A stretch of DNA of 64,000 nt, from the NCBI GenBank assembly GCA_017527435.1, contig JAFXQB010000001.1, positions 4,696 through 68,695 on the forward strand, written 5' to 3'. The notes under the pieces were generated by a model. That model saw only the letters and a list, made by a program, of their open reading frames with translations. It made no database searches and was not told the origin of the DNA. This DNA comes from Salinivirgaceae bacterium. GTDB taxonomy: Bacteria; Bacteroidota; Bacteroidia; Bacteroidales; SZUA-534. A program made the position numbers and the translations under genes. Position 1 is the stretch's first letter. Each line of letters opens with the position of its first letter. Below are positions 1 to 40,723 of the stretch, piece after piece.

Positions 1-3000
1 GTCAGCGGCAAATCTCCATTAGTGGCCAAATAGGCTATCTCACCATCTTTTTCGCATCCAGAGCCATCGCTAACCACAAGGCTGTAGGTGCCGGCCATCA
101 CATTATTCCATACTGCGTTGGCGCAGGTTTCGCCGGTGTTGCGGTTTGTCCACAGGAAGGTGTAAGGCGCGTGGCCACGCTGTGCCACAGCCTCGAGCCG
201 CCCGTTGGCATACTGGCGCATTGTGGGGTACTGACGTTTTATCGAAACCACAACACTGCTATCGGCAATTGATACCGGCACGTTAAAACGGCAATCGTTC
301 GTATCTTTGATATAAACGGTGTACGAACCAGCCGACACCGATTTGCTGAAAGCGGTTATGCCGCCTGCGGTTCTGAATGTTTCCTGTCCGAAGTCGTTCT
401 CTATTTTATAAGGTGCGGTACCGCCCGAAATATCAACTGCTATAACGCCATCGCTGCCGCAGTATGCCGCCCTCGACAGATTGTCGGCTTTCAAGGCCGG
501 CGGAGTGGTTACAAGCACGGTATCATAAACCATAACACCTGCCGAATCGATTAATGTCAGCACATAAAGGCCGCCACCCACTTGTATGGAGTCGGATGTC
601 AGGCTTGCCGCAACACTGTCGAACGGCTGCCGCATTGCCACGGTGTCGCCCGTGAGGTTACATGAGTAGCGGTACTTGCCCCAACCACCTTTGGCAATTA
701 TTTTTATCGAGCCCTCCGCTCCGTTGCACCAAGCCGGATGAGGGATGCCCTCAACCATCAGCGGACTGTCGGGCTGGCGCATGAAGCCGGTGATTACAGA
801 ATCGGTACATTCTTTATGGTCTTGAACATACAACTTGTGTGTTGTGTCGGGCATGAAGATGTCTTTGAATGTTTCATGGATATCCCACGCAGCATGTCCA
901 ACCATACTGTCGCTCACTATAGAATCAATATAGATATTAAACCGCCCTTTATTACCACCGGCAACCAACACTTCCACTGTGCCGCCCTTTTTGCCGTACT
1001 CGTGGATTATGGTGTCTTGATGGATGATAGACATTTGAAGCCGTTCTGGCTCCTTGACTTCGATCGGGTAATGTTTGCCGCTCTTTTCCCCAAAAGGCAA
1101 ATCCCGTTCGGCAACAGATGTTGTGCAGCCATTGACATCGGTAAGGGCAATCTTGTAATATCCTTTATACAGCGAATCTATCTCCCACAATGGCGGTATT
1201 CTTTTTTTGACGGTATCGGCGTAGTATTTCCATGTTCTGTCATTTGATGAGGAATCTGTTGGAATGGTTGCTACAAACGAATTGTTGATTGTGTCCTTGC
1301 GGTAAGGGACATAGACACCATCCTCATTGCATTTAAACAACTGATAATAAGTCGTGTAATATGATCCTTCCACCGAATCAATTATAATCTGACCATTTTT
1401 CTCGCCATAGCATATTACCGAATCAAAATGTGCTGCCATAACGTATGGGTTGTGGTATTGCCTAAGAGTATCGTCTTTTATAAGTACGCACTGCTTGCTA
1501 TCAAACACGCTTATACGGTATTTCCCGGGATACAGATTACCGAATATTTTCATATCCGTTTGTATCGTAGAATCCATTCTGGCGTTCCTTGGGGCGGTAG
1601 GCCAGAGTTGTTTTATTTCGCCATATTCATTTTTTGTGGTATCCCATTTATAATCAAGCCCGATTGTGTCGATACAATACTTGTACCCATTGCCATTAAC
1701 CGAACCTCCGCTGGCCTTTATCTGAATTTTGCCACTGGCCGTGAGCTCGCAAATTGGGTCGGTGGGAACAAACTGGGCGAACACTATTTCCGAAGGACGG
1801 GTTATTATTTTGCTGTCAATTTGCCGTGCATCACACGTGTGGCCATTTACTATATCATAAATCTTAATAGTATATTTACCTGGATTTGTGCTGTGATAAA
1901 TAGTGCTTTCGCGTGAGTTTATACTAAACACTTTATCTGAAAAATCGTTTTCGGAATTGTCACCACCTTCAAATGAAAGAATGTAATACAAAGACTCTGT
2001 TTCTTTTCCCGTTCTCCATTCGTCTGTAAATGGCTCAACTCCCATGAATCCTCCTTTAATATTTTTAATTTCTATATCTGCGTATGTACTATACGAACAC
2101 AAGAAATCTTTGTATGGAGATTCTGCTGACAACGAATCGATGCGGTATTTGTCTAAATTGGTTATCTCATAATCTTTTGAACGACTGAATAAAATATCGA
2201 AATGAGAACTCTTATAACTAACCTTATCAAGCATCAATGAAGTATTCGGGTTGTTTACATTGATCTCATCTGTTACCGCTTCTACCTCATCACATTTAAG
2301 AGTATATTCCGCCTTGCTATCTGCTTTTAATTCTTCATTGGCAATTTTGTAAAATACAACTGAATCATCTTTCTCCAAGGTATCAGAAGAAACTTGTTGG
2401 CTTGTGTCTATTCTAAAATTAGGATTTTCATTATTTGATTTTAGTTCTAATTTCAAAGTATCTTCATAGCAATATGGAATTGTATAAATTGTGTCATGAT
2501 GCAGAGTGTAATTATTTATAATATAATTTTTTGTCAACTCATCATAATTAATATTATAATTCCACACTTCCCATGATTTCCATTTATTGTCATTTGGAGT
2601 ATTAGTTTTGTACACAAGAATTATTTTGTATTCCCCGCACCTGTAGTTATCGTCACTCAAAATATAATAATTTGTATTGTTAGATACAGGCTTTGTAATT
2701 GTAGCAATACTATCCTTGTTTTTATTTATTTTAAAATAATAATCAGTAATCAATTTGTTTTTGTCTATGTCGCCAACTAGCGAATAATACAAAGTGTCAT
2801 TACTTTGCCTTATATCTATTTTACCAACTATAGCCGGGGCATTTATATAAAACTCTTTCGAAGTTGTGCAATAGCCGTTCAGTTGAGATGCAGTTACTGT
2901 ATATGCATTGGCTTTCAATTCAGACAAACTTAATGAGTTGCCTTTCTCACTTGTTTCTTCTCCACTTTCACTTTTATGATTCAGTGTCCACGTAACATCC

Positions 3001-6000
3001 TGTATGGCATTTCTTACAGATATTTCTGCAGAGCCTTTACCTTCAATTGTGGTGGCGTTTGTTATTTTCGCCTTATTAAAATCAAATAACTGTTTTTCTG
3101 AGTTAATAGTTATAGTATTCATTCTATACCTAATGGAACCATTAATTCTAGGCTGATATGTTGCATTATTCTCTAATCCAACGAAACAAACAGTATTATC
3201 TTTTCCATTGTAATATTTTTCGTCTACCCATTCATAACTCTTTTTACTTTCATTATACTTCCACAACTCAACTTTTTGGGTAGTTCTGCTATCAAATTGT
3301 ATAATAACAACACCACCTTTTTCCGAACAATATGTGACAGACAATACTTGTGGTACTTTTAGGTCATTAAAATCAGGTCCATAATTCAGGGGAATAAGAT
3401 TGATAGTATTTTCGCCTTCTCCCGTAGTGCATTTTTGCCCATATCTGTCTGTAAGTGGTTCCCCTTCTTTATTTGTAACAACAGTTGTAGGCCATGTCCT
3501 TTTAAAATAAAGCACTCCACTAGGATCTTTTAGATTTGTTATTGCAAAACTTACGGGATTATTAAAATTAAACAATCTTGAGATTTTGTCATCCCCATCC
3601 ACATACGATTTATCAACGTCATTCTTCTTAAAATACATTATCGTTCCCATATCACGATATTCAGCTTCGACTTTGTATTTATATGGGGAAGTCTCTTTGT
3701 CATCACCAGTGTTTGGGTAGCCTGTCACTGTTACTGTATTGTCGAAAAACTGGGCTTCAACAAAAACATCGAATGTTGATTGAATACCCAAAACATCTGT
3801 TAATCTATATTTTTCCAAACAGTTTGTGGTTATTCCTTCTAATTTGTATCCATCTTTGTTGTCATCATTATAGTATTTATTACTTATTTTGGATCTTAAC
3901 TCGTTTGTCCATCTTGTTTTTACAATTCCTGGTGGCAATGTATTATCATCGACCATATTTTGGCGGTATTTTATTCCCGCTGATGTTTCATATACTACAT
4001 AATCCACGCTATCACTTCCAGCATATTTTATACTGCTTGGCTTTGCTGAAATATTTATCGGCACCGACTTCCCGTTATAGTTAATGCTATGGCCATCGTA
4101 ATATGCACAATTCAAATATTTATCTATTATTCCGCATTGAAAACCTGGCATCGGCGTAACACTTGATCCAATCATATCTATTAGATAAATTTCCTGCCTA
4201 TCGTCAATAGGATTACATTTACCTTCAACAATAAGTTTGTTACCATTACCCGCCATAAACGAATAATATTTATCTATATCATCGGGGATATTAAAACTTA
4301 AATTTATTGGACCTGGGACCTCTTTGCCTTGTTTTAATAATTCATTTCGATAACCATCATTAATATATGAATTGAAATACAAAGTTCCACTACTTGCAGA
4401 TATAGTAATATCATTAGCTGTTAAGGAATATTTGGTTGATCCATCGTCGTCAACAGCTTTGTTCGTATTATGAAGCGATATTTCTGAACCGTATTTCTCA
4501 GGAAGGTTATCTATTACAACAACATAATACTGAGGAGAATTTCCTCCAGGGATGTAAGTTGCATTGGAGAATACGAATATATATGCAGTTATTGTGGTAC
4601 CGTTTTTTTCGATATGTGTAAAAACCTGATTACCAGTATCTATTTTCTTGCACGTAATTTTTTGTACATTTTCTGAACCAATATATCTTTCAATCGTTTT
4701 TTTGGCATTACTCAACCAATTTGATTCTTTTCCTAAACAATATATCCTGCTAATAATTGAGTCTTTCGTTAAATTTTTTAATGCAGCATTTACACCGCCT
4801 TCTCCAAAATCTATGGGACTCAATCCTATATTTTCCTTTGCACGAAACGTCGTATCAACTTTATTATTGACCAATCGTTCTATTTTGTATGGGACACGAA
4901 AGTTTGGATCGGTGAATTTCAAATTTACATATGGACTATCCCCTATATTTGATCCTACTGCTTGTACTCCGACTGTATCCGGTTGACTTATATCTTCTTC
5001 ATATACATTTTTCATTTTTGGCATACAAAAATAGGTTTTCGCGTCTATCAATGCTTTTTCCTTATCATTAACTTGTAATTGTAATTTAAATGGGAACCGC
5101 CAAGGCCAAAGTATCTCATAAACTTTGTTGTTTTTGGAGTCTTTGTCGGCGTAGGGGAGGAATGGGTTTATTACAATAGGGTTCATATACATATTGACAT
5201 ACACATCCCCTCCATCAGGAGTTAATTCCGCTGCGGCATATTTATATCCATTTTTTCCACCTTCATTTTTAGGCAGGTATAGTCTAATCGTATCATTACT
5301 TCCTTTATAAGTTTTTTTATAAGCCACGTAAGAATAATCGGGGAGACTATTTAGGAACTGGATTTTCAGTGTTTTATTTTGGGTTTCGCTCGTATATGTG
5401 CCAAATTTCGTTGTTTTTAAAATGCGGATACAAATGTCTGCTCCAAGTACATCTTTACTTAACGCACTTTTTACGTCAGAATAATAAATGCTTATTGTTC
5501 CATTCGGGCCTATCGACCCTCGATATGACAAGTTTTTCCAGTTTGAACCATTATCTATACTACATTGCAATATACACGTTGTTTTTTCATTTACATAGTA
5601 ATCATTAATGCTTAGTTCTATTGGTTTATCTGTTGGAACATAATATTTATCAGTCTCATTTTGTACATAATCTGTATTGTTATCTTTTATCCTGTATTCC
5701 ATATTGAGTTGCGGTGGCAAATCAACGTAAGTATATATGTCTAACCTGTACGACTCTGTATGACCGGTTAATTTATTGCATTTGTGAGAATCTGAAAATT
5801 TAATGCTTTCGTTTTGTCCTATTTTGTTTAAAATAATTTCTTTAGATGGGTAAGCATCGTAATTTTTGATTTCTGCTTCTACTTTAATTCTTTTACCAAC
5901 AATTCCGTTTCCATACCCCATAGATATAAATCCCATATATGACGAACTTTTCCTGTATACTACTACATTTTCACTAATATTCGTTACTTTTAATTCATTT

Positions 6001-6155
6001 AAATATGGATCATCTTCGCCTTTACAATGATTGGCACCATCAAAATCATATTGAATAATTATTGGGCATTTCGGCCATATAGTCTGAGCGAATAACTGTT
6101 GCACACATGCCAAAACACAACAAAACACGAATACAATTCTATATTTCATAGTCAT
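1..6155 (-). CDS. giant secreted SprB-repeat cell-surface protein, first >2050 codons (3' end lies beyond window position 1)
   Basis: Not in the supplied ORF track because it has no stop inside the window. The minus frame (plus-strand triplets starting at positions divisible by 3) has no TTA/CTA/TCA wherever I checked: 1-120, 290-480, 1860-2000, 2860-2940, 3000-3060, 4080-4140, 5040-5100. No minus-strand sub-ORF is listed for 1-6299. ATG at 6155 (or 6149) gives MTMKYRIVFVFCCVLACVQQLFA|QT, a Sec signal peptide. SprB-type repeats by manual translation: AYCGSDGVIAVDISGGTAPY (408-467), AGSYTVYIKDTNDC (291-332), AGTYSLVVSDGSGC (54-95), AYTVTASQLNGYC (about 2868-2906). Confidence 0.8.
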   Translation of the reverse strand, partial: MTMKYRIVFVFCCVLACVQQLFAQTIWPKCPIIIQYDFDGANHCKGEDDPYLNELKVTNISENVVVYRKSSSYMGFISMGYGNGIVGKRIKVEAEIKNYDAYPSKEIILNKIGQNESIKFSDSHKCNKLTGHTESYRLDIYTYVDLPPQLNMEYRIKDNNTDYVQNETDKYYVPTDKPIELSINDYYVNEKTTCILQCSIDNGSNWKNLSYRGSIGPNGTISIYYSDVKSALSKDVLGADICIRILKTTKFGTYTSETQNKTLKIQFLNSLPDYSYVAYKKTYKGSNDTIRLYLPKNEGGKNGYKYAAAELTPDGGDVYVNMYMNPIVINPFLPYADKDSKNNKVYEILWPWRFPFKLQLQVNDKEKALIDAKTYFCMPKMKNVYEEDISQPDTVGVQAVGSNIGDSPYVNLKFTDPNFRVPYKIERLVNNKVDTTFRAKENIGLSPIDFGEGGVNAALKNLTKDSIISRIYCLGKESNWLSNAKKTIERYIGSENVQKITCKKIDTGNQVFTHIEKNGTTITAYIFVFSNATYIPGGNSPQYYVVVIDNLPEKYGSEISLHNTNKAVDDDGSTKYSLTANDITISASSGTLYFNSYINDGYRNELLKQGKEVPGPINLSFNIPDDIDKYYSFMAGNGNKLIVEGKCNPIDDRQEIYLIDMIGSSVTPMPGFQCGIIDKYLNCAYYDGHSINYNGKSVPINISAKPSSIKYAGSDSVDYVVYETSAGIKYRQNMVDDNTLPPGIVKTRWTNELRSKISNKYYNDDNKDGYKLEGITTNCLEKYRLTDVLGIQSTFDVFVEAQFFDNTVTVTGYPNTGDDKETSPYKYKVEAEYRDMGTIMYFKKNDVDKSYVDGDDKISRLFNFNNPVSFAITNLKDPSGVLYFKRTWPTTVVTNKEGEPLTDRYGQKCTTGEGENTINLIPLNYGPDFNDLKVPQVLSVTYCSEKGGVVIIQFDSRTTQKVELWKYNESKKSYEWVDEKYYNGKDNTVCFVGLENNATYQPRINGSIRYRMNTITINSEKQLFDFNKAKITNATTIEGKGSAEISVRNAIQDVTWTLNHKSESGEETSEKGNSLSLSELKANAYTVTASQLNGYCTTSKEFYINAPAIVGKIDIRQSNDTLYYSLVGDIDKNKLITDYYFKINKNKDSIATITKPVSNNTNYYILSDDNYRCGEYKIILVYKTNTPNDNKWKSWEVWNYNINYDELTKNYIINNYTLHHDTIYTIPYCYEDTLKLELKSNNENPNFRIDTSQQVSSDTLEKDDSVVFYKIANEELKADSKAEYTLKCDEVEAVTDEINVNNPNTSLMLDKVSYKSSHFDILFSRSKDYEITNLDKYRIDSLSAESPYKDFLCSYSTYADIEIKNIKGGFMGVEPFTDEWRTGKETESLYYILSFEGGDNSENDFSDKVFSINSRESTIYHSTNPGKYTIKIYDIVNGHTCDARQIDSKIITRPSEIVFAQFVPTDPICELTASGKIQIKASGGSVNGNGYKYCIDTIGLDYKWDTTKNEYGEIKQLWPTAPRNARMDSTIQTDMKIFGNLYPGKYRISVFDSKQCVLIKDDTLRQYHNPYVMAAHFDSVICYGEKNGQIIIDSVEGSYYTTYYQLFKCNEDGVYVPYRKDTINNSFVATIPTDSSSNDRTWKYYADTVKKRIPPLWEIDSLYKGYYKIALTDVNGCTTSVAERDLPFGEKSGKHYPIEVKEPERLQMSIIHQDTIIHEYGKKGGTVEVLVAGGNKGRFNIYIDSIVSDSMVGHAAWDIHETFKDIFMPDTTHKLYVQDHKECTDSVITGFMRQPDSPLMVEGIPHPAWCNGAEGSIKIIAKGGWGKYRYSCNLTGDTVAMRQPFDSVAASLTSDSIQVGGGLYVLTLIDSAGVMVYDTVLVTTPPALKADNLSRAAYCGSDGVIAVDISGGTAPYKIENDFGQETFRTAGGITAFSKSVSAGSYTVYIKDTNDCRFNVPVSIADSSVVVSIKRQYPTMRQYANGRLEAVAQRGHAPYTFLWTNRNTGETCANAVWNNVMAGTYSLVVSDGSGCEKDGEIAYLATNGDLPL

Positions 6156-6299
6156 AAATTACTCATTTGTTATATTATATCACGTTCATTTCTTTTTCGT
6201 TTTCATAAACGCACATTCTCTCACCTTGCAGATTATTTCGAAGTCGCATATACTAGTTGGTATTTCCCTTAGTTGTTTGTTCATCTGGATTCTTCTGTA

Positions 6300-9200
6300 T
6301 TAATATTCAATATCAATTCGCATGGAGCTTGTAACCAAACTCTTACCTAATAATTTATACTTAATAATTATTGGGTAATTTCCTCTTGTTAATATGGGAA
6401 AGTGTTCAACTGAAAACAGCTTGTCAATACCTTGAGTTTTTGTATGGCTGCGAACATAATTAGCCACTTCGGTTTTTATGTCACTCATTTCTTGGTCAAT
6501 ATATATGGAAATATTATTATTGTATGCCCCTAAATGATATCGCGAATTGAAAATGCCTGTTTCCAGTTCACTATCTGTCAGTTTTCTTTGACCATCAAGG
6601 AATCCAATATTTGCTATACCAATACTTGCGGGAGGCTCTTTATTGCCAACGATTTTTTCAACATCGGGATTTTCGTATAAGAATGGTGCAATACTATCGG
6701 TATACCATCTTGTGTTAGCATAATCAGGAGTCAAAATCATCAGATTTTTACCTTCATTATAATAATCGTGTTCTCGATAATCAATAATCTCCGGTTTAGT
6801 AGTTTTATCCGTAATGTTTGCTATAAGTTTAAATACTGGTCCTGCAATTTGCCAGCCACTATATTCTTCAACCTCAAATCCCTTCTCTATCTTATCTTTA
6901 AATGTTGTATATGAACTAGTCCTAAAGTTTGCTGCGTAAATCACTGTGGTTTCAAGCATTTCAATGGTGCCTTCGGCTGAGCGTGTGGTTTTCTCCATAT
7001 CGGAACGTGTATCCTCAATTTTTGCGCTGGTAGCTTTAATGTTGACATCGGTTTTTGTTACAATTTTTTGTGGAACGTTGACAATGGCAAGTTTGTATAT
7101 CTGGTCGGGGGCAAACTTAAGGCCTGCAGTGCTAGCGTATACTTCAAACTGCACAGCAGGATCAGTTGAAAGACGCGGCGGTGCGTAACTGAAACTAGTT
7201 GTTTGCGGTGTACCACCAAATGGAGTCAGTTGTAGCACCTGGTCGTAGCCTTCAGGCTTTTGTTCTTCGAAAAGATAGCTGTAGTCGTACTCCACAAGAA
7301 GGTAAACCTCTGAGTACTCACTGCTGTAGAAGTTATACTGGCGGTCGGCGGGATAACTATAGAGCACATGGTCCGGTATTATGTAGTCTGGCCTATTGCC
7401 CGAAGTGAATTCAACAGTTTTCTCCTCAATGCAGTCTGTGCCATCCTCATTCTTAACGGTTTCCCATTGGCTACCATTGAGTTTTTTAAACGATACTTTG
7501 GCCGTTACCTTGTGTTTTTTCTGGCTCTCGAGCGGCCTCTTCAGTTTGTAGGTGAATGTACGGTTGTCCTCACTTGCCATCATTGTAGCTTCCACTACCT
7601 TATTACCTCCTCCTTCTATGTTGGTTATTGTAAACTCATCAATGTCAATGCGATACAAGCAACCATCGTCAAGATTCATTTTCTGGTTAGCAGGCACGTT
7701 AAGCACAAGCTGCGGAGCAATAAACACATTCACATCTGTGCTGCCACCATCGGGGGTGAGTTGAGCAATCACATTCTCGCCAAAGGGACTTCCGCCAACC
7801 ATCTGGCAGGTATCGCCTATCTGGAAATCGAATGTGAATTTGCCTTTAACCAATCCCTTCATCACATCAAAATTACCTCCAATCATACCGCTGAAATAGA
7901 ATGGTTTTGGGCCTGCACCTGTCAGGTATGAAATCAATTCACCGTTGAAGATATTGAAATCGCGCGATTTCTTAAAAAGATTCACTTTCATTCCAACACT
8001 GGCCTTGCCATAAGCCCACGCTTGAGCTTGCGCATACCACCCATTAATTCCCACAGGGTCGCTCGAGCCTTTGCAGTGCACATTTGGGCCATAATTCTTC
8101 AGCAGAAACTCTGTGCCCATACCAAAGTTCAGAGTGGCGTAGAATGGCTTCAACGTGGCATCGAAACCGAGCGTCAGGCTCGAACCCATGGCAATGCCTT
8201 TGCCCTGGGCAAGCAGTCCGGCATCAGGTCGATTCTTAAGCTTGCTTTTTTGTTCTGTCGACAGAATACTGCTGTTCAAGATTTCATCAGGCAATGCAGG
8301 AATTCCGGGAATACTGTCACCCATCATAAAATAACTGCTGGTTTTGGCTATGCCAAGCAACTCAACACCACACCTTGCATCGGGCGTACCAATGCGGGTG
8401 TACCATGTGTTGTCAGATACATAGATGTTGGCATAACCCATCATATCGTTGTCGCCCGTGCCTCGCAGAAAACCGCCCACATTCAGGTATGCCTTTAAAT
8501 CCGAGGTGAAGACACTGTGCTGAATATCGAACATCATACCCATCGAAGCGCGCAGCACTCCGTCGCCTTTGGGCTTGTCAAGCTGGCTCTTGTCGAATTT
8601 CACAACACCCTTCGAAGCACCTTCAATCTTATCCATGTTGCTCTTTATGCTCTGAGCCAGGCCTGCGCCCAAATCCTTGCATACAAAGGTTGCGTCGCCG
8701 CGCAGCTGTATGAAGTTAACACCCCAGTCTTTGTTGAATTGTATTTCGAGCCCCACATCGGCGGCCATCAGTTTGTCGCTGCCCGAGAAGCCGAATTTGG
8801 TACGCGCCATCAGACCGATAGCCACGTCCTTGTCGGGTACATAATTGATTCCTGAAAGCGATTTTCCAAAATCACCACCCAAGCTGTTTTTCTTTTGCTG
8901 CATCTTGTAATAAAGGCCTCCGCCCACACCGTAGAAATTCAGGAACGATACTTTTACGCCGTTGGCTGGCTCGGTTTCAAGAAAAGCGTCGGTCAGGAAG
9001 TAGCGGTACTCGTCTTTTTTGCCGAAGACACCCACTGCCGCAACCTGCAGTTTGCCTTTCAGCAGCTTCATCTGCATGTCGCCGCGGAATCCTTTGCCAT
9101 AGACAGCATCGCCGCTCTTAAATTCCACGCCACCCGCTATTGAGAAGGCGCTCTGCTCATAGTTGACATTAATCTTGCCAACTTCGGCACTGCGGAATTT

Positions 9201-10910
9201 CCATTTATGCGAATCGCCATAAAGCTTGAGCCCCGCCTTGCCGGTGAATTTTTCAGTAACGTGCACTTCGGCGTCAACAGCCAGTCCGGCGCTTTCGCCT
9301 TTCTCGTCTTCAAAACTTTCAATTCCGTTTATCGTGAGCTGGAATCCGGCCACTTTGGGGGTCGTTAGTTTACCTGTCAGCCCCACATGCTCCAAATGAA
9401 ATTTCGTAGGGCTGATGGTCATTCCTTCAAAATTGATGTCGGGCAGAGTCATGTTGTTGTTGTCCTTCTGGTTACCGATGGCAGCATTAACCGATATTAT
9501 TCCGTTCAGACTTAGTTCGGGTTTAACCTTCGAGCTGTCAATTTCAACGGTGATGCGCGAGTCGGGAGTCAGCTTCAACGATCCGCTCAGCATTGGGAAA
9601 TCGGCAGTGTCGGGCAGAACGGCCTCAACCATGTATTTGTTTGCCGATACGTTAAGTTCGGCTTTGTAGTCGAGTAGCGATTTCTGTCCCAACGGCGGAG
9701 CATTGAGCTTGCCGCCAAACCCAACTCCTGAAATCTGATTCTGCAGAATGCCTATCTCAAAATCCTCGATACTGATGTCCCACGAGTTAGGGTCGATTGT
9801 GCCCGTTGCCACCACATTCTGCGCTGCGGCGTTGCACGAGAAGCCCGCTCCATCGATTATGACATTTGAAAGTGTGAGCTTTTTGCGCTCTTTCTTTTTT
9901 GTTTTGTCGTCCGGCTTCTGCTGGCTGGCTTGTGTTTGAGCCTGTGTCTGCTGGCCGTTTTGTGATTGCGCAGCGGATGCGTTGTCGCCGCTTCCCGACA
10001 TAAACTCGGGCAGCGTAACCTCTGCCTGGGTTACAGCAACACCACGCCACATGTTGCGGTCGTCGTCGGTGCCACCACTGAAATAGTTCTCAGGGAACTG
10101 CACCATTGCCGATGTTGATGTGTAACTCTGGTCGAGAGTAGCGCCGTTCAGCTGGAATATGTAATCGTTAAGCCCTTTGACAATAAATTGCTTGTCGAAA
10201 CCGAATGATACCGTATAATCGTCAATATCAACAATATCTGCTGACAAATCGGCTCTCAAACGTCCCGATGGTTTGCCCGAGCCGTCGATGGTTTGAATGG
10301 AGTTGCTTTTCAGAGCAAAGGCTATCTTTGCTGATAGCTTCTCAAAACCGTCGCAGCCAAACTCTACAGCAGTACCCGCCTTGAATATAACAGAAGCTTC
10401 ATTTCCCATTTTCCGCTCACAGGGGGCAGTCAGTTCAAGTCTTCCCTTTGTGCCCACACCATTTTGTCCTTCCACAATGGCGTCGCCGTCGAAGGCGAGC
10501 TTCTGTCCGTTGTCATTCAGCGGAATTATACACGATGCTTTCAGGTGTGAACGGCCTTGGTCGTCACTCACAATCTCGCTAATGCAGATGAGATATTTGT
10601 CAGCATCACCAATACCGACAGGCAGGCTCAGCTCGCTTTTTGTGAACAAATCAGACAGCGATTTCACCGTATTGCCCATTGCCTTCACACTCTCATACAC
10701 ACTCATGGCGCCATCCAGACGGCGCTTCTGATCATCGTTGAGGTTCAATGAGTCGAGCAGTTTCGACACAGCATCTGTGGCTTCTTTGGTAATAAAAGCT
10801 TTCGCATCTTCTGATATATCATTCTGTGCAAAAGCTTGATTAGTGCCCACAGAAAAAAACGACATGAAACATGCCGCAATCAGCACATACAATCTTTTCC
10901 CGAAAAACAT
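6300..10910 (-). CDS. large (1536 aa) secreted/envelope protein of unknown function, directly upstream of the SprB-repeat giant
   Basis: Track ORF 6300..10937 begins at TTG. The first ATG at 10910 gives MFFGKRLYVLIAACFMSFFSVGTNQAFA|Q, a signal peptide. The body is Gly- and beta-strand-rich. Q/K-rich low-complexity linker SGSGDNASAAQSQNGQQTQAQTQASQQKPDDKTKKKERKK at nt 9879-9998. I can name no family motif. Confidence 0.75.
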   Translation of the reverse strand: MFFGKRLYVLIAACFMSFFSVGTNQAFAQNDISEDAKAFITKEATDAVSKLLDSLNLNDDQKRRLDGAMSVYESVKAMGNTVKSLSDLFTKSELSLPVGIGDADKYLICISEIVSDDQGRSHLKASCIIPLNDNGQKLAFDGDAIVEGQNGVGTKGRLELTAPCERKMGNEASVIFKAGTAVEFGCDGFEKLSAKIAFALKSNSIQTIDGSGKPSGRLRADLSADIVDIDDYTVSFGFDKQFIVKGLNDYIFQLNGATLDQSYTSTSAMVQFPENYFSGGTDDDRNMWRGVAVTQAEVTLPEFMSGSGDNASAAQSQNGQQTQAQTQASQQKPDDKTKKKERKKLTLSNVIIDGAGFSCNAAAQNVVATGTIDPNSWDISIEDFEIGILQNQISGVGFGGKLNAPPLGQKSLLDYKAELNVSANKYMVEAVLPDTADFPMLSGSLKLTPDSRITVEIDSSKVKPELSLNGIISVNAAIGNQKDNNNMTLPDINFEGMTISPTKFHLEHVGLTGKLTTPKVAGFQLTINGIESFEDEKGESAGLAVDAEVHVTEKFTGKAGLKLYGDSHKWKFRSAEVGKINVNYEQSAFSIAGGVEFKSGDAVYGKGFRGDMQMKLLKGKLQVAAVGVFGKKDEYRYFLTDAFLETEPANGVKVSFLNFYGVGGGLYYKMQQKKNSLGGDFGKSLSGINYVPDKDVAIGLMARTKFGFSGSDKLMAADVGLEIQFNKDWGVNFIQLRGDATFVCKDLGAGLAQSIKSNMDKIEGASKGVVKFDKSQLDKPKGDGVLRASMGMMFDIQHSVFTSDLKAYLNVGGFLRGTGDNDMMGYANIYVSDNTWYTRIGTPDARCGVELLGIAKTSSYFMMGDSIPGIPALPDEILNSSILSTEQKSKLKNRPDAGLLAQGKGIAMGSSLTLGFDATLKPFYATLNFGMGTEFLLKNYGPNVHCKGSSDPVGINGWYAQAQAWAYGKASVGMKVNLFKKSRDFNIFNGELISYLTGAGPKPFYFSGMIGGNFDVMKGLVKGKFTFDFQIGDTCQMVGGSPFGENVIAQLTPDGGSTDVNVFIAPQLVLNVPANQKMNLDDGCLYRIDIDEFTITNIEGGGNKVVEATMMASEDNRTFTYKLKRPLESQKKHKVTAKVSFKKLNGSQWETVKNEDGTDCIEEKTVEFTSGNRPDYIIPDHVLYSYPADRQYNFYSSEYSEVYLLVEYDYSYLFEEQKPEGYDQVLQLTPFGGTPQTTSFSYAPPRLSTDPAVQFEVYASTAGLKFAPDQIYKLAIVNVPQKIVTKTDVNIKATSAKIEDTRSDMEKTTRSAEGTIEMLETTVIYAANFRTSSYTTFKDKIEKGFEVEEYSGWQIAGPVFKLIANITDKTTKPEIIDYREHDYYNEGKNLMILTPDYANTRWYTDSIAPFLYENPDVEKIVGNKEPPASIGIANIGFLDGQRKLTDSELETGIFNSRYHLGAYNNNISIYIDQEMSDIKTEVANYVRSHTKTQGIDKLFSVEHFPILTRGNYPIIIKYKLLGKSLVTSSMRIDIEY

Positions 10911-11045
10911 TGTTATATATGTGTATGAATGGGGCAATCCCCATCGTTATTAATCAAACAAACTGCACTTTTGCCGCCTTGCTAAAAAGCCGATGAATCA
11001 TATACTTCGAATCGGCGCCATCTCCCCTGGAAATGCATGAATTTT

Positions 11046-12945: not shown

Positions 12946-13097
12946 GGAATGTGTAAAGAGTAAAGGTAAAAGAGTAAAGGCCAAAGAGTTACGAATTATG
13001 AATTACGAACTGATTTCACAAACGTTAATCATTACTCATTAAACATTACACTTTACTCAAAATCAATCAAAAATCGAAAATCAAAAATCGTAAGTAT
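12946..13097 (+). repeat. composite strand-asymmetric intergenic element (copy A) between iorA and iorB
   Basis: 12946-12980 has no C (35 nt, GTAAAG/AGTAAAGG words). The core carries CGAATTATGAATTACGA (12992-13008). 13025-13075 has no G (51 nt). Collinear exact blocks are shared with 38257-38424: a 17-mer, AATCATTAC and ACACTTTACTCAA. Confidence 0.7.
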
Positions 13098-14979: not shown

Positions 14980-15023
14980 AAGTTTAGATGGTTAGAAGTT
15001 TAGAGTTTAGTTCTATAGCTATA
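14980..15023 (+). other. C-free, stop-codon-dense tail after paaK plus TATAGCTATA palindrome
   Basis: 14980-15012 contains no C (33 nt). TAG occurs in all three frames (14985, 14993, 15001, 15008). 10-nt palindrome at 15014-15023. Confidence 0.6.
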
Positions 15024-21077: not shown

Positions 21078-21128
21078 ATTTTTGATTTTTGATTATCGCA
21101 CAGAATACACAGATAACTCTGATTTACA

Positions 21129-21136
21129 CAAATTTA
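21129..21136 (-). promoter_or_regulatory. candidate -7 box (TAAATTTG on minus strand) for add
   Basis: Plus-strand CAAATTTA; 52 nt upstream of ATG 21077. Confidence 0.35.
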
Positions 21137-21203
21137 TTGTTTTATGACTTCAGACATCGGACAACAGACAACGGTCTTTTTTCCCATCATTTATTGCCCC
21201 GCG

Positions 21204-21242
21204 CCTAATTCTAACTCCTAATTCCTAACTTCTAAATAATAA
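21204..21242 (-). other. C-free tail (on the transcript strand) after the methyltransferase stop
   Basis: The plus strand at 21204-21242 has no G (39 nt; CTAA/TCCTAA words). It sits immediately 3' of the minus-strand stop at 21243-21245. Confidence 0.6.
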
Positions 21243-22659: not shown

Positions 22660-22837
22660 ATGAACAAAATACTTGAGCGAAAGTTCTCTAAATCACTATT
22701 AAAAATTCGCAGCATAAATCCGCATTAAAAATAGAAAAGTTTTCAGAATTGCACCGCGTATTGCATTTTGAGAGTACAATGGCGCAATTATTTCAGCGGG
22801 AAAAGCCACTTTAATCACACCATTCAGCATCGGTAAA

Positions 22838-22929
22838 TTCATCACAAAAACACCAAATGAATTACCACAAAAACACCGAATGAATTACCACAAAAACACC
22901 GAATGAATTACCACAAAAACACCGAATAG
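22838..22929 (+). repeat. 23-bp tandem repeat, about 4 copies (ATTACCACAAAAACACCGAATGA)
   Basis: Exact copies at 22861-22883 and 22884-22906. Copy 22907-22929 differs in the last 2 nt. Degenerate copy at 22838-22860 (19/23). Confidence 0.9.
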
Positions 22930-22954
22930 AAATGGGATATTAAATTATTATTCA

Positions 22955-22962
22955 TATATTTG
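22955..22962 (+). promoter_or_regulatory. candidate -7 box TATATTTG for the ATPase gene
   Basis: Matches TAnnTTTG and is followed by C; 24 nt before ATG 22987. Confidence 0.45.
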
Positions 22963-22986
22963 CAGTCAAATTGTAAATGCAATATT

Positions 22987-24372: not shown

Positions 24373-25140
24373 ATGAAAGTAACTTTTTTAGGTACGGGGG
24401 CGTCGCACGGCATTCCGATTGTGGGATGCAAATGCTCTGTGTGTCAGTCGGTTAACCCGAAGGACAAGCGGCTGCGCAGTTCGGTTTACATTGAAACCGA
24501 AGGGCGCCATCTGCTCATCGACCCTGGGCCCGACCTGCGGCAAGCGGCTCTGCGCGAAGGCTTTACGCAGATTGACGCCGTGCTCATAACCCACGAGCAC
24601 AAAGACCACACCGCCGGCATCGACGACATCCGCACCTTTAACTATATAATGCGCCGCGCCATTCCGTTCTACGCTCAGCCGCGCGTCACCGACACCATCC
24701 GCCGCGAGTACGCCTACGCCTTCAGCGAGCCGCATTACCCTGGCGCACCGCAGATTGAACTTCACCCGATTGGCAACGAACCGTTTGATGTTCAGGGTAT
24801 TACGGTAACGCCGATAAACGTTCTGCACGGCACGCTGCCCACCACGGGCTTCCGCATCGGGCAGTTTGCCTACATCACCGACGCCAAAACCATCGCCGAC
24901 AGCGAGATGGCCAAACTGCAAGGTCTTGACACATTGGTTATCAACGCCTTGCGCATTGAGCAGCACCCCGCGCATTTGAGTCTTGGCGAAGCACTCGACA
25001 TTATCTGTCAACTGAAACCGCGTTGCGCCTATCTGACTCACTTGAGCCACAAAATACCCGTCTACGACGAACTGATTAAAATGCTGCCCGACAATGTTTT
25101 GCCGGCTTACGACGGACTGAAGATAAGGATTGAAGGATAG
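24373..25140 (+). CDS. MBL-fold metallo-hydrolase (PhnP-like phosphodiesterase family)
   Basis: HxHxDH motif THEHKDHTAG; N-terminal CxxC pair GCKCSVCQS. Confidence 0.75.
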   Translation: MKVTFLGTGASHGIPIVGCKCSVCQSVNPKDKRLRSSVYIETEGRHLLIDPGPDLRQAALREGFTQIDAVLITHEHKDHTAGIDDIRTFNYIMRRAIPFYAQPRVTDTIRREYAYAFSEPHYPGAPQIELHPIGNEPFDVQGITVTPINVLHGTLPTTGFRIGQFAYITDAKTIADSEMAKLQGLDTLVINALRIEQHPAHLSLGEALDIICQLKPRCAYLTHLSHKIPVYDELIKMLPDNVLPAYDGLKIRIEG

Positions 25141-25204
25141 AAGGATTGAATAACTGAAGGATTGAATGATTGAAGTCCCGATAGCTATCGGGATGAAGGA
25201 TTGA
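25125..25204 (+). repeat. AAGGATTGA reiteration flanking an 18-bp perfect palindrome
   Basis: Exact AAGGATTGA at 25125, 25141, 25157 and 25196. The first copy lies inside the last codons of the MBL gene. Palindrome TCCCGATAGCTATCGGGA at 25176-25193. The related word AAGGATTG recurs at 44206-44213. Confidence 0.8.
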
Positions 25205-25225
25205 AAACAATTTAAATACCGAATA

Positions 25226-35006: not shown

Positions 35007-37109
35007 TCATTGCACAAAACCTTTTCTCCTCAACAGATTCTTCGGGTCGGGTTGGCGGCCACGGAAGTTGATGTAGAGCGTCATCGGGTCATCGGTGAAG
35101 CCGCGCTCAAGAATGTTGTGGCGCAAGCTGGTGGCCACTTCGCGGTTGAAGATGTCGCCAGTCTCCTTAAAGGCAGCAAACACATCGGCATCCAGAACCG
35201 CAGCCCATGTATAACTGTAATAACCTGCTTCATAGCCAGTTGTAAAAATGTGGCTGAAGTTGGTGCTTCGGTAGCGGACGATTATTTGCGGAATCATACC
35301 CATGCGCTCCATCGAAGCCTTCTCAAATGCTTCTACATCAATCGAATCGGTGGTTGTTATCAGATGATAGTCCATATCAAGGATGGTGGCTGACAGCAGT
35401 TCGGTCATCACAAAACCTTGATTGAACGTTTTGGCGCGTTGCAAGCTTGCAATAAGTGAGTCGGGAATTGTTTCTCCCGTCAGATAATGCTTTGCGTATG
35501 AGCGCATTACTTCGGGTTCGTAGCACCAGTTTTCCATCAGTTGCGAAGGCATCTCAACAAAATCGCGCGGCACGCTTGTGCCCGACAAACTTGGGTAGGT
35601 GCACTTCGACAGAAATCCGTGCAGTGCATGGCCAAACTCATGGAAAAGAGTCTCCACCTCGTCCATCGTCAGCAGCGAAGGCTTGTCGGCCGTAGGTTTG
35701 GTGAAGTTGCAGACATTGCAAATCACAGGCCGATGGTCAACACCATCCTTCACATACTGCTCGTTGATGTTGTTCATCCACGCACCACCGCGTTTTCCTG
35801 CACGAGGGAAGTAGTCGCCGTAGAAAATGCCCAGCAGTGAGCCATCGGCATCCACAACCTTAAACACCTCAACGTCGGGATTATAAACAGGCATCTCCGA
35901 CAGCTTTTCGAATTTCAGTCCATAGAGTTTCGTGGCCAAATCGAATACGCCCTGGCGCACGTTCTCAAGTTTGAAATATGGCTTCAGCGCTTCTTCGTCG
36001 AGATTGTATTTCTCGCGGCGCAGTTTTTCGGCGTAGAACCACCAGTCCCACGGTTCTAGTTTCTCGCCGCGGCCTTCGGCATCCATAAGTTTTTGAAGTT
36101 CAGCGGCTTCCTTTTTGGCCTGCGCCAACGATGGTTCCCAAACTGATGGAAGGAAATCCATCACATTTTTTGAGTTTTTGGCCATCGATGTTTCGAGAAT
36201 CATATCGGCAGGATTGTCGAATCCGAACATTTTTGCCTTCTCAACGCGTAGTCTAACCGTTTGATTGATAACCGATTTATTATCGTTTGCGTTGTTATTG
36301 TTGCCGCGCATTGTGTAAGCGATTAGCAGTTCGCGACGCAGTTCACGATTCGTACAATATTGAAGTACAGGAATAAAACTTGATTTCTGCGTTGTGAAAA
36401 GCCATTTGCCAGGTTGTCCTGCGGCAGCGGCTTCTTCGGCGGCGGCATTCTTCACATCCTGCGGCAGACCGTCCAAATCCTGTTCATTATCAATCCATTT
36501 CTGATAAGCATTGGTCTCGGCCAGCACGTTGCCGCCAAACTTGATGTCGAGCAGGCCCAACTCCTTGTTAATCTCGCGCAGACGGGCTTTTTGGTCATCG
36601 TTAAGGTTTGCGCCACTGCGGACGAAACTCTGATATTTCTTTTCTAGCAACCGCATCTGCTCTTGATTGAGATTGAGCGAATCACGCATATCATAAACTG
36701 CCTTGATTCGTTTGAAGAGTGCGGCGTTCAGGCAAATATTGTCGGAATGGTCGGAAAGCAAAGGCGTCACCTTTTCTGCAATAGCGTCCATATCTTTGTC
36801 AGTATCAGCCGAATAGAGATTAAAGAAGACATCCGAAACGCGTTCGAGCATTTCGCCCGAATACTCAAGTGCTTCAATAGTATTGGCAAATGTCGGTGGT
36901 TCGGGGTTGTTTGCAATTGCTTCAATTTCAAGCGAATCCTGCCGCATTCCTTCAATAAAGGCTGGCATATAATGCTCGGTTTTAATCTTATCGAACGGTG
37001 GCACTCCGTATGGCGTGTCAAACTCTGCGAAGAATGGATTTTGTGTGTCGGCGCACGAGACGGTTAATAACGACATAAGACTGAAAATTAAATATTTGCG
37101 TTTCATCAT
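35007..37109 (-). CDS. dcp: M3-family peptidyl-dipeptidase
   Basis: HEFGHALHG zinc motif; lipoprotein-type signal MMKRKYLIFSLMSLLTVSC; 700 aa. Confidence 0.85.
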   Translation of the reverse strand: MMKRKYLIFSLMSLLTVSCADTQNPFFAEFDTPYGVPPFDKIKTEHYMPAFIEGMRQDSLEIEAIANNPEPPTFANTIEALEYSGEMLERVSDVFFNLYSADTDKDMDAIAEKVTPLLSDHSDNICLNAALFKRIKAVYDMRDSLNLNQEQMRLLEKKYQSFVRSGANLNDDQKARLREINKELGLLDIKFGGNVLAETNAYQKWIDNEQDLDGLPQDVKNAAAEEAAAAGQPGKWLFTTQKSSFIPVLQYCTNRELRRELLIAYTMRGNNNNANDNKSVINQTVRLRVEKAKMFGFDNPADMILETSMAKNSKNVMDFLPSVWEPSLAQAKKEAAELQKLMDAEGRGEKLEPWDWWFYAEKLRREKYNLDEEALKPYFKLENVRQGVFDLATKLYGLKFEKLSEMPVYNPDVEVFKVVDADGSLLGIFYGDYFPRAGKRGGAWMNNINEQYVKDGVDHRPVICNVCNFTKPTADKPSLLTMDEVETLFHEFGHALHGFLSKCTYPSLSGTSVPRDFVEMPSQLMENWCYEPEVMRSYAKHYLTGETIPDSLIASLQRAKTFNQGFVMTELLSATILDMDYHLITTTDSIDVEAFEKASMERMGMIPQIIVRYRSTNFSHIFTTGYEAGYYSYTWAAVLDADVFAAFKETGDIFNREVATSLRHNILERGFTDDPMTLYINFRGRQPDPKNLLRRKGFVQ

Positions 37110-37182
37110 TGTTACATATTATGATTTCGAAAGGTATGCTTTTTTGTTTTACATCATTATTTCAGTCGAAACAACCTTTTAT

Positions 37183-37190
37183 TACATTTG
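37183..37190 (+). promoter_or_regulatory. candidate -7 box TACATTTG
   Basis: Followed by C; 19 nt before ATG 37210. Confidence 0.45.
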
Positions 37191-37209
37191 CGCACAAAAT
37201 ATCACCCAT

Positions 37210-38256
37210 ATGATTGATTATAGCGAAGTAACACTGAATCAAATTGTTGTGCACAATATCGGCAGCCGCTCCGAAGAACAGGGCGTGCAATTGTCGAAAG
37301 CACCGACGCAAATCTTCGACGAGACTGCCGAAGACATTCTGAAGACATATTTTCTGTCGCATTTCAAGACCGAATACTTCTACCAGTTTGTGGATAACGA
37401 AGATTTACAGCAAAATGCGGTTTACGACTGCATCAGCAAGGTGTTCGACGACAATGCCCAGTTCTACCAGCAATCAACCAACATCGCCTGGCATCTGTAC
37501 GAAAAATCGAACCACCCGAACATCAAAACGGGCGAATTTTATATGGTGTATTTCAGCGGAATACAAATTGACGGTGTAGCAGTTGACGCCATCGGAATCT
37601 TCAAATCGGAAAACAAGGACACATATATAAAGGTGTGCCAGCAAGGCGACAGTTACGGTGTTGAATACGAAAATGGCATCAATATCAAGAAGTTGGACAA
37701 AGGATGCTTGATTCTGAACAACGAGCGCGAGACTGGCTACCAGGTGGCCATTGTCGACAGCACCAACCGCGGCGACGAGGCAATGTACTGGCGCGAGAGT
37801 TTCCTGAACGTGATGCCGCGCGAAAATGAATACTACCAGACCAACCAACTGTTCGACATCTGCAAGAATTTCAGCCACGATATGCTCACATCGCAAAACA
37901 AGGTTGACAAGGCCGACCAGGTGACGTTTATGAAGCGCGCAGAGCAGTTCTTCAACACGAACGACTTTTTCGATAGCGAGCAGTTTAAGAATGATGTCAT
38001 TGGCAACGAGCAGGTTAGCGCCGCATTCGAAGACTACAAGCGCAAGTTCGAGAACCAGAAGATGCTCTCGCCGATTGACCAGTTCGAGATTTCGGGCGAG
38101 GCCGTCAAACGTGGTAAGAAATATTTCCGCAGCGTGATTAAACTCGACAAGAATTTCCACATCTACGTGCACGCCAATCCCGACTACATCGAGAAAGGAT
38201 TTGACGAGCACAAAGGTTTGAAATTCTACAAGTTATTCTTTAGTAATGAGGAATAA
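37210..38256 (+). CDS. nucleoid-associated protein (NdpA/YejK-like)
   Basis: ATG 37210 (MIDYSEVTLNQIVVHNIGSRSEEQG...). The track ORF from 37015 overlaps dcp and the promoter. Confidence 0.55.
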   Translation: MIDYSEVTLNQIVVHNIGSRSEEQGVQLSKAPTQIFDETAEDILKTYFLSHFKTEYFYQFVDNEDLQQNAVYDCISKVFDDNAQFYQQSTNIAWHLYEKSNHPNIKTGEFYMVYFSGIQIDGVAVDAIGIFKSENKDTYIKVCQQGDSYGVEYENGINIKKLDKGCLILNNERETGYQVAIVDSTNRGDEAMYWRESFLNVMPRENEYYQTNQLFDICKNFSHDMLTSQNKVDKADQVTFMKRAEQFFNTNDFFDSEQFKNDVIGNEQVSAAFEDYKRKFENQKMLSPIDQFEISGEAVKRGKKYFRSVIKLDKNFHIYVHANPDYIEKGFDEHKGLKFYKLFFSNEE

Positions 38257-38424
38257 ATAATGGTATTGGGTGTTAGGTGTTTGGTATTAGTGGATTTAGA
38301 ATTTCGAATTATGAATTACGAGTTACGAACAAGAATCATTACACCTTAAACTTTACACTTTACTCAACCTTTTAAACTCTAAACTTCCAAACTTAATACT
38401 TCTAAAACTTAAAACTCATAAATT
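38257..38424 (+). repeat. composite strand-asymmetric intergenic element (copy B)
   Basis: 38257-38304 has no C (48 nt). Core CGAATTATGAATTACGA at 38305-38321. 38334-38426 has no G (93 nt). TAAACTCTAAACTTC (38373-38387) is the exact reverse complement of 14995-15009. Confidence 0.7.
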
Positions 38425-38712
38425 ATGGCAAGCAAAAGACAACTTAAAGGCGACATCACTTTCATTGTCAAAGAAATGGTTAGCGAATGTATTGCATACA
38501 CAATGATGGTTCCGAACGTTGACATCAAGGCCACCGAGGACCTGATAAACGACATTCTGGATTATTACGGCAAGGCTCTGGCCGACATCAACGCTGCTCG
38601 CAAGGTCGCAGCAGGCGAGCGCGGCGACAACCTGAAAGCCATCCGCAACGACGCCCGTCAGAAGGTGACAGAATTCGTTGGACGCATGGCAAAACTCAGC
38701 GAAAGCAAATAA
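38425..38712 (+). CDS. small hypothetical protein (95 aa)
   Basis: Clean ORF starting at ATG, with composition like its neighbours. No motif recognised. Confidence 0.4.
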
Positions 38713-38747
38713 AAAAGAAAACTATTGGCAAAACGGAACACAAATAG

Positions 38748-38755
38748 TACCTTTG
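38748..38755 (+). promoter_or_regulatory. candidate -7 box TACCTTTG for thrS
   Basis: Followed by C; 27 nt before ATG 38783. Confidence 0.4.
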
Positions 38756-38782
38756 CCGACCATTTTTAGTGGACGTATTATT

Positions 38783-40723
<1,941 letters not shown>

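Follow-up and report, generated by a model that had tools for sequence, protein, structure and literature searches.

Degenerate heptanucleotide tandem arrays forming a dispersed, low-copy mosaic between co-oriented genes of a Salinivirgaceae genome

Repeats with a seven-nucleotide unit are the over-represented class of long simple repeats in bacteria, according to PMC4679880 (citing Mrazek 2007) and PMC4692102. In Beggiatoaceae, Cyanobacteria and Bacteroidetes arrays of the unit TAACTGA closely precede start codons, and a translational role has been proposed for them (MacGregor 2015, PMC4679880), and in Elizabethkingia spacers composed of several heptamers are near-identical at two loci and contigs end in arrays (PMC4679880). 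Arrays of GGGAATC/GGGGAYT occur in Xanthomonas and Nostoc (PMC4692102), and the function of heptamer arrays is still regarded as speculative (PMC4679880; 10.1101/2022.06.06.494920). The stretch of DNA analysed here, termed the window, comprises 64,000 nucleotides (nt) of a Salinivirgaceae (Bacteroidales) genome known from metagenomes of animal guts, and contains a 168-nt spacer termed copy B (38257-38424, plus strand) and a partly homologous spacer termed copy A (12946-13097, plus strand). The repeat they represent is almost certainly a mosaic of degenerate heptanucleotide arrays in tandem, dispersed and low in copy number, that is placed between two co-oriented genes, and it belongs to the already known class of intergenic heptanucleotide repeats rather than being a new kind of element.

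The 7-nt unit, the intergenic position and insertions or deletions between strains in steps of 7 nt are shared with the heptanucleotide arrays described as Mrazek long simple repeats, as cyanobacterial short tandemly repeated repetitive (STRR) sequences and as TAACTGA arrays. Further similarities with these arrays are the placement adjoining start or stop codons, the presence of mixed heptamers in one spacer, the recurrence of near-identical multi-heptamer spacers at several loci, the breaking of contigs and the proposed translational role. The differences are that the arrays here are short (3-5 units), decayed and chained in a fixed polarity from G-rich to G-free, that a conserved 34-nt core recurs at several junctions, and that the units are GGTGTTA, GAATTAY, TTACACY and AAACTTN. 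No such repeats are described for Salinivirgaceae in the literature searched.

The bacterial interspersed mosaic elements (BIME) and repetitive extragenic palindromic (REP) sequences of enterobacteria are mosaics of short motif modules located between operon genes or after genes and reordered at each locus. The recombination of modules in different orders at different loci is similar here, whereas a REP unit is an imperfect palindrome that folds into a stem-loop and is present in hundreds of copies, and the spacers described here have no palindrome or predicted structure, a 7-nt period and, over the window and the metagenome contigs scanned, a low copy number. Elhai et al. are said to have described, in 2008, small dispersed repeats nested in cyanobacterial intergenic repeats, which resemble a 16-nt palindrome, CCCGATAGCTATCGGG, located inside arrays; the likeness applies to the palindrome alone and is one of description. 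A third comparison is with leaders and enhancers of translation. Shine-Dalgarno-independent leaders have reportedly been characterized in Flavobacterium johnsoniae by Baez et al. in 2019, and unstructured A/U-rich or CA-rich sequences act as translation enhancers, the 'epsilon' motif of T7 gene 10 being UUAACUUUA. The sequence ahead of the ATG in the spacers is likewise G-free, A-rich and unstructured, and within the core stands UUAAACUUUA, which exceeds the epsilon motif by one base and provides a lead only. In a difference with typical leaders, the stretch is much longer (50-90 nt).

Composition and homology of the two spacers

Copy B is untranslated and occupies the whole gap between an NA37/ndpA-like gene, past its stop codon, and the ATG that begins a 95-aa open reading frame (ORF95), as delimited from the sequence and from gene calls on same-species contigs with Pfam NA37. 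These two genes are co-oriented, and the gene calls agree with the initial annotation of this DNA, which had placed an element between an ndpA-like gene and a small ORF before thrS. Tandem Repeats Finder (TRF) detects four period-7 arrays in succession in each copy, with the order in copy B being GGTGTTA, GAATTAC, TTACACT and then CTTCTAAA/AAACTTA (AAACTTN), all on the plus strand. Array 1 of copy B, (GGTGTTA) x3.1 at 38269-38290, is C-free and G/T-rich and carries TAG stop triplets. Array 2, (GAATTAY) x4.4 at 38299-38329, is common to copy A and includes a 17-nt exact block at 38305-38321. This is followed by the conserved G-free core AATCATTACACCTTAAACTTTACACTTTACTCAA (34 nt, 38334-38367), defined by alignment and TRF and composed of approximately four decayed TTACACY heptamers (TRF 38339-38363), and by array 4, (CTTCTAAA/AAACTTA) of about five units at 38369-38422 (TRF 38369-38416), which is G-free and A/C/T-rich and reaches the ATG.

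The period is also evident over the whole of both spacers, with a lag-7 autocorrelation of 0.58-0.59 compared with 0.30 expected (z ~8) and echoes at lags 14 and 21, a feature overlooked in the initial annotation. The arrays of the window are short, with 3-5 units each and 68-88% matches by TRF, and long perfect arrays are present only in the relatives L116 and L141. Here and below L-numbers are labels of comparison sequences, the relatives being Salinivirgaceae metagenome-assembled genomes (MAGs), with L008-L127 taken from genome contigs and L146-L328 from IMG/VR.

The element had been recognized from its base composition, as 48 nt without C followed by a 93-nt G-free run regarded as improbable by chance, and both lengths are borne out. 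The C-free run covers 66 nt (38239-38304) and includes array 1, with 48 nt from 38257 belonging to the spacer and the remainder to the upstream gene, of which it is the end. At 93 nt (38334-38426, 24% C) the G-free run is the longest in the window; it includes array 4, and its last two bases are the AT of the start codon at 38425. When the window is shuffled by mononucleotides 200 times, the longest G-free run has a mean of 39 nt and a maximum of 57 nt, and the longest C-free run has a maximum of 51 nt. The two runs exist because C-free and G-free heptamer units are repeated in tandem.

Copy A is the entire spacer from the iorA stop codon to the iorB ATG and contains arrays of GTAAAGA (12953-12979), TTACGAA (12989-13009), TTACTCA (13025-13059) and AATCAAA (13065-13089), found by TRF on the plus strand, with a G-free stretch of only 51 nt. 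Three collinear exact blocks had been reported as common to the two spacers and are present in that order: CGAATTATGAATTACGA at 12992-13008 and 38305-38321 (0.3 matches expected at three or fewer mismatches), TTACACTTTACTCAA at 13046-13060 and 38353-38367, and AATCATTAC located between them in both copies. The core of copy A, AATCATTACTCATTAAACATTACACTTTACTCAA (13027-13060, plus strand), is defined by local and multiple alignment. The initial annotation had considered that no family would exist if the alignment failed to extend beyond the short exact words. The homology does extend beyond them, in other copies as well, and the best local alignment of 12985-13060 with 38298-38367 has 61 of 70 aligned bases identical (87%) and a score of 74, where shuffling reaches at most 35 with mononucleotides and 51 with 7-nt blocks (500 shuffles each). 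The core is the best-conserved block in an alignment of seven core-bearing sequences, and a profile search with it, of the kind proposed at the outset, matches both window copies and their orthologues with E values of 1e-12 to 1e-19.

The homology between A and B is confined to the central 70-76 nt formed by arrays 2 and 3. Arrays 1 and 4 have different units in the two copies and are non-homologous, and these outer arrays account for most of the 93-nt G-free run and for the 48-nt C-free part. The earlier view of a genuine dispersed repeat, and not a mere compositional bias, stands for the middle part, which is homologous and defines a family, and does not stand for the outer arrays, which are unrelated. 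In place of a discrete element titled by its C-free and G-free runs, the spacers are mosaics of decayed arrays without defined ends.

In the area of copy B a 12-nt inverted repeat (92% complementary) is present between 38217-38228, at the end of the NA37 coding sequence, and 38297-38308, at the start of the GAATTAY array. It is probably a chance occurrence, as it is not kept in L133 or L139.

Occurrence, turnover and divergence

The iorB product is 99% identical to a protein of a Salinivirgaceae MAG, and same-species contigs include GCA_045118715.1. Within the species spacer B is identical save for one single-nucleotide polymorphism and a one-unit (7-nt) insertion in some contigs, the additional unit (TAAAACT) being located in array 4 of L003, L140 and L145. 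At the iorA-iorB junction, L142 and L143 differ from copy A in heptamer copy number and have extra GAATTAY units. L116 has a GAATTAY array of at least 20 units with the contig terminating inside it, and in L141 array 1 is swapped for approximately nine units of TTAGGCA, an array of which is likewise present in L128-L130. A slippage origin is indicated because copies vary by 7-nt units (L003, L140, L145, L142, L143, L116 and L141), and the arrays would accordingly lengthen and shorten through replication slippage.

At the NA37-ORF95 junction the core is retained in L133-L135 and is present in a variant form in L130 and L144. It is absent from L128 and L129, which have the same layout of G-rich and then C-rich heptamers and flanking genes in which only ~14-17% of third codon positions differ, and in L136-L138 the spacer is just 20 nt. 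The iorA-iorB junction shows a comparable range, as L329 has 117 nt of different arrays without the core, though its iorB is 95% identical, and the spacer is 36 nt in L331, 23 nt in L333 and 95 nt of unrelated repeats in L335. A core pattern with 27 specified bases identifies seven stretches in metagenome contigs, representing three junctions, namely the orthologues of A and B and a junction in L139 that follows a gene ending in ...KIVKN. L139 has in addition a fourth copy that is short and lies directly past another stop codon. The profile search places two cores in the 64-kb window. On these counts the family exists and is low-copy and dispersed. At every locus seen the modules have the sense of the flanking genes, and the polarity is constant, with G-rich, C-poor units past the upstream stop codon and A/C-rich, G-free units extending up to the downstream ATG. 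The modules may have been copied from junction to junction through recombination rather than transposition.

Copy B differs from L140 and L145 by 0.6% substitutions in the element and by 5-7% in ORF95 third codon positions. The corresponding values, with flanking third codon positions, are 6.9% and 39-42% for L133 and 15% and 22-40% for L130, and the comparison of copy A with L142 and L143 gives 0-2.6% for the element and 5-8% for the flanking third codon positions. The low divergence was considered as proof of purifying selection and rejected as such: the signal is real but is confounded by recombination blocks and by promoter-bearing spacers, which are conserved to the same degree as the element. 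In L001 the NA37 third positions differ by 12% and those of ORF95 and thrS by 0-0.2%.

Across 37210-40723, comparison with the same-species contigs L001, L003-L005, L140 and L145 gives third-position differences of 12-16% for NA37 and the upstream peptidase and of 0-4% for ORF95 and thrS. This jump between NA37 and ORF95/thrS places a recombination breakpoint at or near the heptamer spacer.

The 17-mer CGAATTATGAATTACGA corresponds to two and a half GAATTAY units, and a scan with it over one genome per species gives at least 120 stretches. Among the matches listed are Bacteroidota, Cyanobacteria, Chloroflexota, Fibrobacter, Planctomycetota, candidate-phyla bacteria and archaea of the anaerobic methanotrophic (ANME) groups, and most of these matches sit within a longer (GAATTAY)n array. 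One relative, L116, is among the matches listed. Within the same set 93 of the 103 scorable arrays are intergenic, and 19 of 120 loci have a downstream inverted (RTAATTC)n partner capable of forming a hairpin, which is not a feature of the window copies. Read in the sense of the mRNA, GAATTAC is a median of 9 nt from the upstream stop codon and GTAATTC a median of 14.5 nt from the downstream start codon among the matches listed. A cross-phylum rule placing GAATTAC by the stop codon and GTAATTC by the start codon was rejected, being a trend only in this set (Fisher p = 0.07). Searches of IMG/VR with exact 21-mers give 47 stretches for (GAATTAC)3, 17 for (TTAGGCA)3 and 107 for (TAACTGA)3, compared with 6, 4 and 2 for three composition-matched controls. 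The preferred heptamers are thus 3-50x commoner, and counts so far above the controls indicate that a preferred heptamer vocabulary exists. Stop codons were rejected as the cause of the preference, since one TAA-containing control unit is still rare.

Structure, transcription signals and possible function

Searches of the whole window against Rfam (Rfam 15) give no match at the gathering threshold, and at E<=10 both elements give only unrelated matches at chance level. The minimum free energies (MFE) calculated for A and B are no better than those of dinucleotide shuffles, nor is there an improvement over half-shuffles in which the G-rich and C-rich halves are kept apart (z +1.0, -0.9, +0.6, +1.1, +2.2 and +0.2), and RNAalifold predicts no pairs for the seven core-bearing spacers. 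A conserved hairpin between the C-free and G-free halves was rejected on the half-shuffle energies and the RNAalifold result, and also as the (TTAGGCA)n arrays of relatives are unable to pair with the G-free tail because the unit contains C. A structured RNA was rejected with Rfam, single-sequence folds, half-shuffles and RNAalifold all negative. The inverted-repeat search, which finds no terminal inverted repeats, none inside copy A and none spanning copy B, led to rejection of a mobile element bounded by inverted repeats. By eye, A and B show no target-site duplication; their ends grade into locus-specific arrays, no phage match is found, and the only plasmid match is a weak one of 52 nt. 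The imperfect palindromic stem-loop unit by which REP, BIME and REP doublets (REPIN) are recognized is absent from both copies.

Neither a terminator-like site nor a sigma-70-like promoter is found in 37000-39000. The Bacteroidetes -7 motif TAnnTTTG (with -33 TTTG) is absent from A and B, and the G-free part cannot hold it. It is present in 14 of the 33 other upstream regions of the window, among them that of the NA37 gene, 19 nt ahead of the start codon, and that of thrS, which is located downstream of ORF95 and has a motif of its own. With no promoter and no terminator, A and B are therefore most simply untranslated spacers within polycistronic transcripts, and judging from the sequence the flanking gene pairs are probably co-transcribed.

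A combined reading is favored with moderate confidence, its functional part being weak: a mosaic of heptamers built by slippage that also serves as a structure-poor intercistronic spacer with the G-free tail as a leader. On the polycistronic mRNA the spacer would be an open region of little structure, used as such or merely tolerated, in which self-pairing of the G-free stretch would be limited to A-U pairs. Over the 50-90 nt ahead of the ATG the ribosome could find an open, A/C/U-rich place to land that has no Shine-Dalgarno sequence, fitting initiation of the Bacteroidetes type. Several points weigh against this reading. There are close relatives that lack the element or have it replaced, so it is not essential and may be neutral. 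The upstream regions of the window are only mildly depleted in G (G 0.15 compared with C 0.17), and therefore no strong general rule for G-free leaders is evident. Repeats in one sense avoid self-pairing trivially, so that a structure-poor spacer need not be selected, and the idea of a leader gives no role to the G-rich 5' arrays. The low divergence of the element may have other causes, namely recombination blocks or recent spread, and since there are close lineages that lack it or carry a replacement, recent spread and strong constraint are equally likely. A wider form of the functional reading, considered rather unlikely, is that heptamer arrays at gene boundaries are a cis-acting intercistronic RNA signal with a cross-phylum vocabulary, recognized either by the ribosome or by a conserved factor that binds single strands. 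It is equally speculative that the Salinivirgaceae core is a specific member of this signal spread among operon junctions, in which case a function at the RNA level would lie behind the constant polarity, the orientation in sense only and the low divergence of the core.

The principal alternative to the slippage-built leader is a neutral by-product, in which slippage arrays arise wherever non-coding DNA tolerates them and are functionless, with the shared core a recent duplicate. This is a tentative but reasonable possibility, given that the element is absent or wholly replaced in close relatives, that copy number is quick to change and the family is low-copy, and that a purely mutational cause for the over-representation of heptamer repeats in many bacteria is proposed in PMC4679880 (citing Mrazek 2007) and PMC4692102. 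It does not account readily for the constant polarity and the sense orientation at every independent locus seen, for a core much less diverged than the flanking third codon positions in L133 and L130, or for certain heptamers lying 3-50x above composition-matched controls in IMG/VR. Those same features of conservation and orientation, together with the lack of structure and the heptamer vocabulary preferred across taxa, could be explained by a trans-acting protein that binds single-stranded nucleic acid at an array of sites, with the 34-nt core as the specific one and S1, a cold-shock protein (Csp) or a Bacteroidetes RNA-binding protein of the RNA recognition motif (RRM) type as candidates. 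Binding of S1, Csp or CsrA has been proposed by MacGregor for TAACTGA arrays (PMC4679880), and a Nostoc preprint infers a heptamer-binding partner (10.1101/2022.06.06.494920). Such an array, and with it the list of candidates, is nevertheless improbable here, as the units of the outer arrays differ per locus, the element is dispensable and the candidate proteins are hypothetical.

The remaining alternatives assign the spacers a role in termination, in coupling or in mobility. A Rho loading (rut, Rho utilization) site, at which transcription would end ahead of ORF95 or iorB whenever the downstream start is idle, fits the location in untranslated RNA within an operon and the unstructured composition, in which C is well above G over more than 78 nt. 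Of the unstructured, C-rich and G-poor RNA expected of a rut site, for which a minimum of 70-80 nt is taken, copy B has 93 nt, all G-free, but copy A only 51 nt, termination between iorA and iorB, which encode the two subunits of a single enzyme, would be unexpected, and the spacing per Rho subunit of ~12 nt does not match the 7-nt period, all of which makes this very unlikely. A translational-coupling switch, in which G/U-rich arrays past the stop codon pair weakly with A/C-rich arrays ahead of the ATG and the terminating ribosome melts the pairing, is suggested by the MFE fold of copy B, which pairs spacer positions 11-61 with ~104-162, and by the inverted (RTAATTC)n partner at 19 of the 120 loci listed, with arms that adjoin the stop and start codons in examples such as L008. 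It is highly improbable, however, since pairing is no better than in composition-matched shuffles and has no consensus structure, the last 39 nt ahead of the copy A ATG stay unpaired in the MFE fold, and the C-containing (TTAGGCA)n arrays of relatives could not pair with the G-free tail. Finally, the occurrence at three to four junctions and the palindrome CCCGATAGCTATCGGG within arrays of three genomes might point to a non-autonomous mobile element (a MITE (miniature inverted-repeat transposable element), a REP/REPIN or an IS200-dependent element) or to a structured small RNA or riboswitch. This is scarcely credible for a low-copy repeat that has no terminal inverted repeats, no target-site duplication by eye and ends grading into arrays, and that has no Rfam family, conserved pairs or promoter motif.

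Heptamer repeats are the most over-represented of the longer simple repeats in many bacteria, and the locus provides a compact comparative example of their possible role. Among close relatives the two operon junctions carry this mosaic, another mosaic or a plain spacer of 20-36 nt, which, with the fixed strand polarity and the conserved G-free core, amounts to a clean natural experiment on whether such arrays affect how the downstream cistron is translated in bacteria whose initiation does not rely on Shine-Dalgarno pairing. In practical terms, arrays of this type break assemblies, as in the L116 contig, and can mimic 'elements' in compositional scans.

Neighboring genes and other repeats of the window

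The gene upstream of copy B (37210-38256, plus strand) is identified by gene calls and Pfam NA37 as a nucleoid-associated, NdpA-like protein of 348 aa. ORF95 (38425-38712, plus strand) is, from its homologues and synteny, a conserved hypothetical protein; the 42 homologues are confined to close relatives, none has a Pfam domain, and the gene invariably comes after NA37.

TRF identifies three further regions of the window with related arrays. On the plus strand a C-free (AAGTTTAG)n array at 14980-15012 is placed straight after a stop codon and is followed by a terminator-like hairpin. The spacer between two minus-strand genes at 21078-21242 (minus strand) has (TTAGGAA/TTAGGAG)n past the stop codon and (AAAATCA)n ahead of the ATG, and includes a (TGTCTGN)n stretch and one TAnnTTTG motif. 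The (TGTCTGN)n stretch, with the sequence ...GTTGTCTGTTGTCCGATGTCTGAAGTC..., is present at 21150-21180 (minus strand) of the window, at 1795-1825 of L139 and at 1158-1181 of L329, next to different genes in different genomes, and is a further shared module of the same mosaic vocabulary. The third region, a C-free (AAGGATTG)n array at 25125-25215 (plus strand), is broken by the palindrome CCCGATAGCTATCGGG at 25177-25192. This perfect 16-nt palindrome is also located inside heptamer arrays at 6779-6794 of L116 and 2809-2824 of L139, where in the 3' arrays it is preceded by ACAGCGAAGC, and it may represent a dispersed insertion of very small size.

At 22843-22927 a 23-nt unit, CACAAAAACACCGAATGAATTAC, is repeated in tandem almost perfectly (3.7 copies, 98% matches), in the divergent intergenic region 22660-22986 and upstream of a TAnnTTTG motif. 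A block of low G+C content extends over ~1900-7000, with 32-34% compared with 45-52% elsewhere in the window, and many of the other G-free runs of the window fall within it. Only five ORFs of at least 60 aa, all on the plus strand and the longest of 133 aa, overlap 1917-6300, and the block takes in the 3' end of a 1545-aa minus-strand ORF (6300-10937). The block may be foreign DNA, or it may belong to a large polymorphic protein locus as its variable region, C-terminal or cassette.

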